Part shown: positions 53,039 to 54,590 of the stretch, one piece after another
Numbering within the stretch: position 1 is the first letter of the stretch
How the letters are laid out: the number at the start of each line of letters is the position of its first letter
IMG/VR virus record: IMGVR_UViG_2609459826_000002
Strand: one strand, 5' to 3'
From: a virus
Lineage: Duplodnaviria; Heunggongvirae; Uroviricota; Caudoviricetes
Length of the DNA: 64,000 nt
Made by a program: the position numbers and the translations under genes
The notes under the pieces: generated by a model
Told to the model about the DNA's origin: nothing
The model's input: only the letters and a program-made list of their open reading frames with translations
The model's database searches: none

Positions 53039-53101
53039 AATAATTCCACTGCCGTCGGTGACGGCAGTACTTTCGGTTCACCCGTAATGAAGGAAAGCAC
53101 A

Positions 53102-53617
53102 ATGGGATTACTGGGCAGGATTAAACAACTGATAAGTGAAAATGAGAAACCGGCGGAAGTCACCCGCGTGATGGCACCGCTGTCCGGTGAAATTGTCCCT
53201 CTGGACACGGTTCCGGATGCTGTGTTTGCCGGGAAAATAGTGGGGGATGGTATTGCTATCCGTCCTTCCGGCGGCGATACCTTGATGGCTCCTGTCAGCG
53301 GCACTATCGGTAAAATACTGGAGACAAACCACGCGTTTTCCATCCGCACCGACAGTGGCACTGAACTGTTCGTGCACTTCGGTATTAACACAGTTGACCT
53401 CAGGGGAGAGGGTTTCCGGCGTATTGCCCAGGAAGGCCAGCTGATCAGCACCGGTGACCCCGTCATCGGGTTTGACCTTGCGTTACTTCAGCAGAAAGCA
53501 CAGTCCACGCTGACACCGGTGATTGTGGCGGACTCTGACCGTGTCCAGGAGATAACCCTGTTCTCCGGCCCGGTCATCGCCGGAGAAACACCGGTTTTTG
53601 ATATCAGCAGCCAGTAA
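53102..53617 (+). CDS. PTS EIIA-Glc paralog (Crr-like)
   Basis: About 70% identical by eye to E. coli Crr (…IVGDGIAI.P.G…TNHAFSI…G.ELFVHFGI.TV.L.GEGF.RIA.EGQ…TLTPV…); start taken at MGLLGR. Confidence 0.85.
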   Translation: MGLLGRIKQLISENEKPAEVTRVMAPLSGEIVPLDTVPDAVFAGKIVGDGIAIRPSGGDTLMAPVSGTIGKILETNHAFSIRTDSGTELFVHFGINTVDLRGEGFRRIAQEGQLISTGDPVIGFDLALLQQKAQSTLTPVIVADSDRVQEITLFSGPVIAGETPVFDISSQ

Positions 53618-53681
53618 GCGCCATGAGTGACAATATCGCCAGCGGGCAGCTGGTATCAGGGAAAGCCGCACATCTGGCCTG

Positions 53682-54590
53682 GTGCGGGCTGGTAAACGTT
53701 TCGATCGTGACAACTTTGATATCCACTGGCTGGACTCGGACGTGGTTTTCCTCGGCGGAACCGGGGGCGGTATCTATGACGTGAAATGGAACGACACTCT
53801 GCGCAGTAACTTCTCCCTGTATGGACGCAATTTCGGGGAGATGGAGGATATCGATAACAACGTCCAGAACTATATCCTTACCATGAACCACTTTGCCGGG
53901 CCGTTCCAGCTTATGGTCAGCGGTATGCGGGCAAAGGATAATGATGACCGCAGGGACAATAATGGCGACCTTATCCATGCCAGTGCCGCCAGCCACGGTG
54001 TGCATGTGTTGGCCGGACTTCATAATGACAGTTTCTGGGGATTACGTGAGGGAACGGCGAAAATAGCACTTCTGTACGGGCATGGTCTGGGGGCGGAAGT
54101 GAAGGGGATTGGCTCTGACGGTGCACTACGCAGTGATGCGGATACTTGGCGTCTTGCTGCATATGGTACCACCCCGCTCGGAAACGGCTGGCATATCGCC
54201 CCGTCAGTCATGGCGCAGGGCAGTAAGGATCGCTATGCCCGTGGAGACAGTTATGAATGGGTGACCCTGAACACCCGCTTGATTAAGGAGGTGACGCAGA
54301 ATTTTGCGCTGGCGTTTGAGGGCACTTACCAGTATATGGATCTGAAACCTGAAGGGTATAAGGACCGCAATGCTGTTAACGGCAGTTTTTACAAGCTGAC
54401 GTTTGCGCCCACCCTCAAGGCAGGAGGTCTGGGGGACTTCTTCAGCCGTCCGGAACTGCGTCTGTTCGCCACCTGGATGGACTGGAGCAGCAGACTGGAT
54501 AACTACGCCAGTGATGATGCTTTCGGCGGTAGCGGGTTTAATGCAGGCGGGGAATGGAATTTTGGCGTTCAGATGGAAACCTGGTTCTGA
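53682..54590 (+). pseudogene. 5'-truncated scrY-like sugar porin paralog
   Basis: ~300 aa highly similar to the scrY at 62970..64000 ([13 protein letters not shown]...MQMETWF) but lacking signal peptide and ~170 N-terminal residues; GTG-initiated ORF only. Confidence 0.7.

Follow-up and report, generated by a model that had tools for sequence, protein, structure and literature searches.

A raffinose island with an EIIA-Glc paralog linked to rafD and a deletion scar behind it

The window analyzed here, the whole 64,000-nucleotide stretch of the tailed-virus record IMGVR_UViG_2609459826_000002 from IMG/VR, carries raffinose (raf) genes at 47049-54590, all on the plus strand. Behind the invertase gene rafD stand a paralog of the gene for EIIA-Glc (Crr), the glucose-specific IIA enzyme in the phosphotransferase system (PTS), which we call crr', and a truncated ScrY-type porin gene, porin'. 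Collectively, our results suggest that crr' is an intact gene and the partner of rafD on a mobile raffinose island, and that the copy of the island in the window has suffered a 2,161-bp deletion, of which the junction between crr' and porin' is the scar; we put the probability of this structural and evolutionary account at about 0.8. Three types of raf cluster are distinguished below: T1, that of the window; T2, the clusters with a RafY porin found in Citrobacter and Klebsiella; and T3, that of K88 plasmids. The elements on which the argument turns are the following.

51608-53038, plus strand: rafD, GH32 invertase of 476 amino acids (NCBIfam scrB_fam, 445.5 bits; amino acid identity of 83% with the K88-plasmid type and of 69% with the Citrobacter/Klebsiella types).
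53048-53068, plus strand: GC-rich 9-bp hairpin in the 63-nt rafD-crr' spacer (terminator-like scan; RNA fold).
53102-53617, plus strand: crr', intact EIIA-Glc paralog of 171 amino acids (family models, identical protein elsewhere, conserved residues).
53623-53694, plus strand: DUF2913 remnant, the first 24 codons of an already broken gene, ending where the deletion begins (alignment to intact loci; annotation of relatives; weak Pfam match).
53691-53694, no strand assigned: deletion junction, GGTA within an imperfect microhomology (11 of 14 positions), with 2,161 bp gone relative to intact islands (6849-9009 of our extract L002).
53695-54590, plus strand: 3' remnant of the ScrY-type porin gene of the island, codons ~200-498 of 498 (Pfam LamB; 1 nt difference from the PN43 plasmid over 897 nt).

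The first-pass annotation of this DNA, made from the sequence alone, had recognized an extra EIIA-Glc-type gene after rafD, and this gene proved to be both real and intact. Its open reading frame (ORF) scores 235.7 bits (cutoff, 212) against the NCBIfam equivalog NF006962, "PTS glucose transporter subunit IIA," over profile positions 1-168 of 169, and 144.5 bits (cutoff, 27.2) against Pfam PF00358 (PTS_EIIA_1). The start, however, which had been set at 53087, more likely lies 15 nt further downstream, at the ATG at 53102: this is the start chosen by the annotation pipeline PGAP in relatives, an AAGGAA motif stands 7 nt upstream of it, and the product then aligns with Crr from residue 1. The 171-residue protein read from this ATG is recorded with its exact sequence on at least 1000 contigs, which argues that crr' is not a pseudogene. 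It has the length of E. coli Crr and 59% identity to it (phmmer E-value, 1e-63), compared with ~85% between the housekeeping Crr proteins of E. coli and Vibrio, and the term "close paralog" was thus an overstatement; given this identity, the predicted fold, that of the solved IIA-Glc, is not in doubt.

In every locus examined, crr' lies 63-65 nt after rafD, outside the ptsH-ptsI-crr operon. Of the 5,426 complete E. coli genomes, 244 (~4.5%) have the rafD-crr' pair at an identity of 99% or higher, with the gene annotated simply as crr, and the hosts of the T1 island include many E. coli genomes from poultry and pigs as well as Salmonella plasmids. In databases, the arrangement is thus routine, a standard organization as the first-pass annotation had allowed, but a paper describing it was not found. 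Our literature search returned none that connects crr or EIIA to rafD or to the raf operon, and in a 2026 study of IncK2 plasmids, rafA, rafB, rafD, and "rafY" are the only raf genes named; the raf-linked EIIA-Glc subfamily goes without discussion in the papers found. The hairpin in the spacer of the window folds at -20 kcal/mol (z = -2.6) and is followed by a weak T-tract; it is possibly a leaky terminator or a transcript-stabilizing element. The Citrobacter and Klebsiella loci have weaker, nonhomologous hairpins at the same spot, and a conserved RNA element was not found in the spacer, the strong hairpin being limited to the type of the window and matching no Rfam family.

The association of crr' with rafD extends well beyond the T1 islands. 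In a search of 5.8 billion protein clusters, the family of the window protein (98% identity or higher) was followed by no match above ~66%. In Citrobacter braakii, the genes are ordered rafA-rafB-rafY-rafD-crr', with a crr' that is 63% identical to that of the window, and in Klebsiella michiganensis, rafD-crr' (60% identical) is followed 1.1 kb later by rafR-rafA-rafB-rafY. Both of these T2 loci have a 476-residue GH32 RafD, a spacer of 63-65 nt, and a Shine-Dalgarno-like motif before crr', and their porin is a RafY of the Pfam Porin_8 family. No scrK-, scrY-, or scrA-like genes were found in either raf locus, and the 1.1-kb gap behind crr' of K. michiganensis contained nothing convincing in the way of DUF2913 or another gene. 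The divergence between T2 and the window is parallel across the cluster (RafD, 69%; crr', 60-63%; RafA, 75%; RafB, 75-78%), and synonymous sites are saturated between the raf lineages. Given that the crr' clade stands directly 3' of rafD in two lineages at synonymous saturation, the rafD-crr' pair is likely to be ancestral. Comparison of the two T2 lineages gives a dN/dS of 0.13 for crr' (rafD, 0.09), and by this measure crr' is under purifying selection. The same two clusters differ in gene order and are 96% identical in rafB versus 83% in rafD and 75% in crr', suggesting that rafD-crr' was exchanged as a two-gene unit and that T2 clusters are mosaic.

No donor of crr' could be named, there being no intermediates between 98% and ~66% identity; the matches at 65-66% are themselves ~84% identical to E. 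coli Crr and, with no rafD homolog on their contigs, look like housekeeping-type genes. The RafD relatives in species-representative genomes, among which there were no true raf clusters, belong to cscB/cscA-like and Gram-positive loci, and in the Enterobacterales and Pseudomonas set none of them has an adjacent crr'.

The third type of cluster, found on K88 plasmids of porcine enterotoxigenic E. coli (ETEC; 13 complete genomes), has no crr'. It resembles the window in rafB-rafD (rafR and rafA lie outside the K88 stretch read), with 88% identity in RafB and 83% in RafD, which makes the T3 RafD the closest relative of that of the window, but behind rafD it has an internally deleted kinase remnant and a 464-residue Porin_8 RafY, whereas the T1 island has crr', DUF2913, a fructokinase, and a porin of the LamB/ScrY family, and no Porin_8 gene. 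RafD identities group the lineages as ((T1,T3),T2), a grouping under which crr' would be ancestral and lost in T3. The 600 bp between rafD and rafY of T3 hold residues ~1-27 and 266-302 of a fructokinase (2709-3307 of our extract L098, from the ETEC1749 plasmid; UMNK88 and further K88 plasmids have the same), suggesting that T3 once had a kinase gene too. We take the K88-plasmid type to be the classical raf operon of pRSD2, judging by the length of RafY; if it is, this would explain the silence of the literature on crr'. The order rafR and then rafA-rafB-rafD described for the pRSD2 operon is also that of the window, and these four genes agree in size as well. In a 2026 genome-wide association study of chicken-associated E. 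coli, "rafY" is given as "sucrose porin precursor," and a complete rafABD is reported for 23 of 45 rafY-positive isolates (PMC12987596); this label may conflate the ScrY-type porin of the island, or scrY, with the unrelated Porin_8 RafY.

The raf-linked paralogs form a group of their own. A profile built from the three of them retrieves only these lineages at 302-338 bits, with housekeeping Crr proteins scoring at most 267, and in a neighbor-joining tree they fall together outside the housekeeping clade. Like E. coli EIIA-Glc (PDB 1F3G, 1GGR, and 4JBW), with which they share the fold family, length, both histidines, the hydrophobic ring, and the N-terminal helix, all three lineages keep the catalytic histidines (H77 and H92 of crr', which correspond to H75 and H90 in E. 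coli IIA-Glc), the ring residues F41, I45, V46, F88, and V96, residues G47, A76, and S78, and the N-terminal amphipathic pattern; F71 is replaced by leucine in the window copy only. They differ from E. coli Crr in their setting, next to rafD in a non-PTS sugar island rather than in ptsH-ptsI-crr, in a one-residue insertion in the 54-56 loop, and in the shared replacements E43G, E80K/R, D94N/S, and E97D, at sites that are 93-98% conserved in the 118 housekeeping Crr sequences used for the comparison. Further shared changes at sites conserved at 90% or more are K53R/L, K58T/M, K132Q/V, N142D/E, and changes at K147 and K151. The four acidic positions presumably lie around the active site, facing HPr, glycerol kinase, and MalK. 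As far as can be read from sequence, this pattern suggests that the phosphotransfer core has been preserved and partner specificity altered.

The porin gene has a different history. When region 52600-54900 was compared by megablast with 72,556 plasmids (PLSDB) and the 5,426 complete E. coli genomes, no record in either collection spanned the crr'-porin' junction, all matches breaking at window positions 53686-53694. Intact relatives, among them E. coli plasmid p135-1, the PN43 plasmid, a Salmonella Saintpaul plasmid, and the chromosome of avian pathogenic E. coli (APEC) O2-211, have the order rafR, rafA, rafB, rafD, crr, two short DUF2913 ORFs, a 308-residue PfkB kinase, and a 498-residue porin. 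Alignment to these loci shows that the deletion, with its crossover in the GGTA at 53691-53694, removed the kinase and porin codons 1-199 and fused codon 24 of DUF2913 out of frame to porin codon ~200, so that the DUF2913 remnant runs on into porin sequence in the wrong frame (mechanical ORF at 53623-53784; frame difference from the coordinates). Since two ORFs are made whole by the missing segment, it is unlikely that the intact islands instead arose by insertion into a shorter ancestor.

With the deletion, porin' lost its signal peptide, the Sugarporin_N segment, roughly the first 100 barrel positions, and its own start codon. As had been noted at first sight, the gene is truncated at its 5' end: it covers positions 103-378 of the 378 in the LamB profile and no part of Sugarporin_N, whereas the intact 498-residue relative matches both, the former over its full length. 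The mechanical 302-residue ORF begins at a GTG that falls by chance in the microhomology and has neither a Shine-Dalgarno motif nor an export signal. Lacking these, its own start codon, and the N-terminal part of the barrel, porin' is regarded as a pseudogene, a dead remnant, on the evidence of its sequence. The search for the junction that the first-pass annotation had called for succeeded through exact-protein look-up, even though plasmid and complete-genome collections held nothing: the exact 302-residue ORF occurs on three contigs, namely, JNPJ01000107.1 of GCA_000703665.1, the first 64 kb of which are the window, and two Logan assemblies; no called gene on record corresponds to the 53-residue fusion ORF. 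Since the same ORF recurs in three assemblies from separate samples, the junction is not an assembly artifact. It is real but rare, and it is a recent deletion, not the old recombination joint between crr' and scrY' that had been envisaged.

The porin of the island belongs to the ScrY family, its intact relative matching the ScrY structure (PDB 1A0S) over the whole barrel with E = 8e-222. Its kinship with the scrY at the end of the window (62970-64000, minus strand) had been estimated by eye at ~80%; it amounts to 71.3% over 908 ungapped nucleotides and 75% over 300 amino acids. The alignment proposed for dating a duplication therefore dates none: the two porins are separately acquired members of the family, ~29% diverged at the nucleotide level. 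Similarly, the island fructokinase is 67% identical to ScrK in amino acids, and the island kinase and porin stand in scrK-scrY order. Beyond the window, the source contig continues with a complete scrY (505 amino acids) and scrK (307 amino acids), 8-12 kb from the deletion. With this intact pair so close, the functions of the lost kinase and porin were probably redundant, and the deletion was probably tolerated for that reason.

A second, independent, and larger deletion in a raf-scr composite was observed in GCA_016985955.1 (9378-10001 of our extract L102), where the equivalent of window position 53672 is joined to that of 58183. It runs from 55 nt behind the crr' stop codon to the inside of a reverse transcriptase (RT) gene of a group II intron, removing DUF2913, the kinase, the porin, the remnant of the insertion sequence (IS) IS1414, and most of an IS3 copy with its intron, and keeping crr'; deletions of this type were also found at four similar places, and in 4 complete genomes of E. 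coli. The 24 contigs read included no raf-scr composite that had kept both kinase and porin intact. From these cases, it can reasonably be inferred that redundancy drives the decay of duplicated genes in raf-scr composites. The DUF2913 gene after crr' was already split into two ORFs (67 and 103 amino acids) in every T1 island examined (L002, 6777-7353), and a 44%-identical homolog lies beside IS26 and umuDC on a plasmid of K. quasipneumoniae (16946-17248 of our extract L099), which hints that this gene is debris of a plasmid backbone and not a raf gene.

The remaining genes of the island and its surroundings in the window are the following.

47049-48059, plus strand: rafR, LacI-family repressor (ORF; LacI and Peripla_BP Pfam domains; 1368-2378 of our extract L003, offset 45681; 0 nt differences from the PN43 plasmid copy).
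48153-50279, plus strand: rafA, GH36 alpha-galactosidase of 708 amino acids (Glyco_hydro_36N, Melibiase, and Glyco_hydro_36C; same annotation in relatives).
50334-51611, plus strand: rafB, LacY-type raffinose permease of 425 amino acids (LacY_symp; central-loop LGAN motif retained as in LacY).
54827-58916, no strand assigned: IS debris closing the island, an IS1414 (IS256-family) remnant and then an IS3 interrupted by a group II intron (APEC O2-211 annotation; Rfam; gene calls).
59028-64000, minus strand: neighboring scr regulon with scrR, scrB, scrA, and scrY, of which scrY extends past the end of the window (ORFs and gene calls; ~99% identity to plasmid copies of Klebsiella, Raoultella, and Citrobacter).

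The IS1414 transposase remnant, N-terminally truncated and on the minus strand at 54827-55606, directly follows porin', and an identical remnant stands behind intact islands in APEC O2-211 and several plasmids. The IS3 copy (55674-58916) comprises orfA at 55674-56000, an ALIL frameshift pseudoknot at 55955-56071 (Rfam), and an orfB split by the group II intron, whose RT/maturase gene lies at 57071-58594 and whose Rfam intron domain lies at 58598-58684; the 3' end of IS3 abuts the scr regulon. The assembly collection lists this junction between the IS3 remnant and scr in 137 blocks (25 contigs were read), and what stands upstream of it differs among several contexts. An IS1 copy and rafR are immediately preceded by a cluster for type I restriction-modification (R, a DUF4268 protein, S, and M), the coordinates being 38307-45774 on the minus strand and 46184-46881; the PN43 plasmid has like-annotated genes (methyltransferase, S subunit, and DUF4268 protein) downstream of its raf island, a likeness that is one of annotation alone. 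Further away, a prophage-like segment at ~22600-33400 with genes for an integrase, KilA-N, DUF968, a LexA-like repressor, and antiterminator Q is 95-97% identical to E. coli prophage and phage-plasmid sequences.

What Crr' does is a matter of more tentative proposals. The gene would be transcribed together with the raf genes, past a leaky hairpin, from the 3' end of the raf unit; the protein would be phosphorylated by HPr on its conserved histidine and would thereby make the use of raffinose depend on how far the PTS is phosphorylated. RafB is reportedly regulated by EIIA-Glc (Titgemeyer et al. 1994), and a LacY-like GAN motif is present in the central loop of RafB in all raf types. Crr' could accordingly serve as an island-encoded inducer-exclusion partner of RafB, the amount of which scales with that of the permease and spares the limited EIIA-Glc pool of the host, the likeliest of the specific roles considered, although by itself less likely than not. 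More broadly, and just as tentatively, mobile raf islands might carry a PTS sensor of their own: a distinct EIIA-Glc subfamily, phosphorylated by the general PTS and with a remodeled surface, that acts on RafB or RafD as an exclusion or anti-exclusion factor. A second EIIA-Glc might also affect catabolite repression in the host, as the first-pass annotation had suggested.

Several points weigh against these proposals and, in part, against the account on which they build. Raf clusters of the pRSD2 type confer raffinose use on E. coli K-12; if T3, which is devoid of crr', does so, crr' is dispensable for the pathway itself. Its absence from T3 makes it probable that the gene is an accessory to raffinose catabolism and not essential for it. 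The hairpin behind rafD could be a true terminator, in which case crr' would be poorly expressed. The N-terminal amphipathic helix is needed for phosphotransfer to the membrane-bound EIICB and not for permease inhibition, so its conservation favors a role as phosphodonor. The placement of E43, E80, D94, and E97 on the partner surface is presumed, no confirmation of it having been found in the literature searched; the grouping of three long branches in the neighbor-joining tree could in part reflect long-branch attraction. On the side of the scar, the redundancy argument is itself an inference, and the two deletions that both spared crr' are a sample of only two events.

A different origin had been proposed in the first-pass annotation, namely, that crr' and porin' are relics of a formerly self-contained sucrose PTS that had included ScrA and ScrB before its recombination with the raf operon, and that crr' was, or still is, the EIIA for an EIIBC of the ScrA type that has no IIA domain of its own. 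The ScrA of the window indeed has EIIB and EIIC domains only, both deletion derivatives keep crr' beside an scr regulon with such a ScrA, and the phosphotransfer core and N-terminal helix of crr' are kept. The 3' end of intact islands does resemble scrK-scrY of the scr regulon known from pUR400 and Klebsiella (scrK, scrY-scrA-scrB, scrR), and RafD falls within a family model of sucrose-6-phosphate hydrolases. In this sense, the raf/scr mosaic that had been suspected stands for the kinase and porin but not for crr', which follows rafD in T2 clusters devoid of scr-like genes. The island has no scrA, scrB, or scrR of its own, and none of the T1 islands examined has a scrA or scrB homolog next to it; the scr regulon next to the island in the window was acquired separately, and the adjacency of crr' and porin' is recent. 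RafD is just 38% identical to ScrB, its nearest non-raf relatives lie in non-PTS loci of the cscB/cscA type without crr, and a host already has its housekeeping crr. Thus, an origin in a sucrose PTS appears unlikely.

Somewhat less probable still, by analogy with the action of IIA-Glc on glycerol kinase, is that Crr' is a dedicated allosteric regulator of the invertase RafD. This would explain why the two genes travel together: the constant partner of crr' is rafD and not rafB or rafA, the pair stands apart from rafR-rafA-rafB-rafY in K. michiganensis, its history within T2 is unlike that of rafB, and the acidic rim facing the partner is remodeled in all three lineages. We know of no precedent, however, for EIIA control of a GH32 enzyme. 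The membrane-anchoring helix that is conserved at the N terminus suggests a target at the membrane, the T3 RafD functions without crr', and the adjacency may merely reflect a position at the end of the operon. That crr' is a functionless passenger, a decaying crr duplicate hitch-hiking with rafD, is very improbable: its absence from T3, its somewhat faster evolution (60-63% identity versus 69-78% for other raf genes), and the change of several near-invariant Crr residues would fit, but the ORF has remained intact at 170-171 codons in three lineages despite saturated synonymous sites, with a dN/dS of 0.13, both catalytic histidines and the hydrophobic ring conserved, a Shine-Dalgarno-like motif ahead of each start, and the identical, intact copies in contigs and complete genomes described above.

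To return to crr' as the intact partner of rafD on a mobile island, carbon catabolite control in enteric bacteria has EIIA-Glc as its central signal, and there is normally one highly conserved housekeeping gene for this protein. By itself, porin' is an ordinary deletion scar, which shows the decay of redundant genes where raf and scr adjoin. A diverged second copy of EIIA-Glc, maintained under selection in a mobile non-PTS island, suggests that catabolic islands can bring along their own link to the sugar hierarchy. If raf islands do carry their own PTS sensor, a horizontally acquired non-PTS pathway would be given its own place in the sugar hierarchy of the host, which would bear on the use in the gut of raffinose-family sugars from soy-based feed and on models that assume a single pool of EIIA-Glc.

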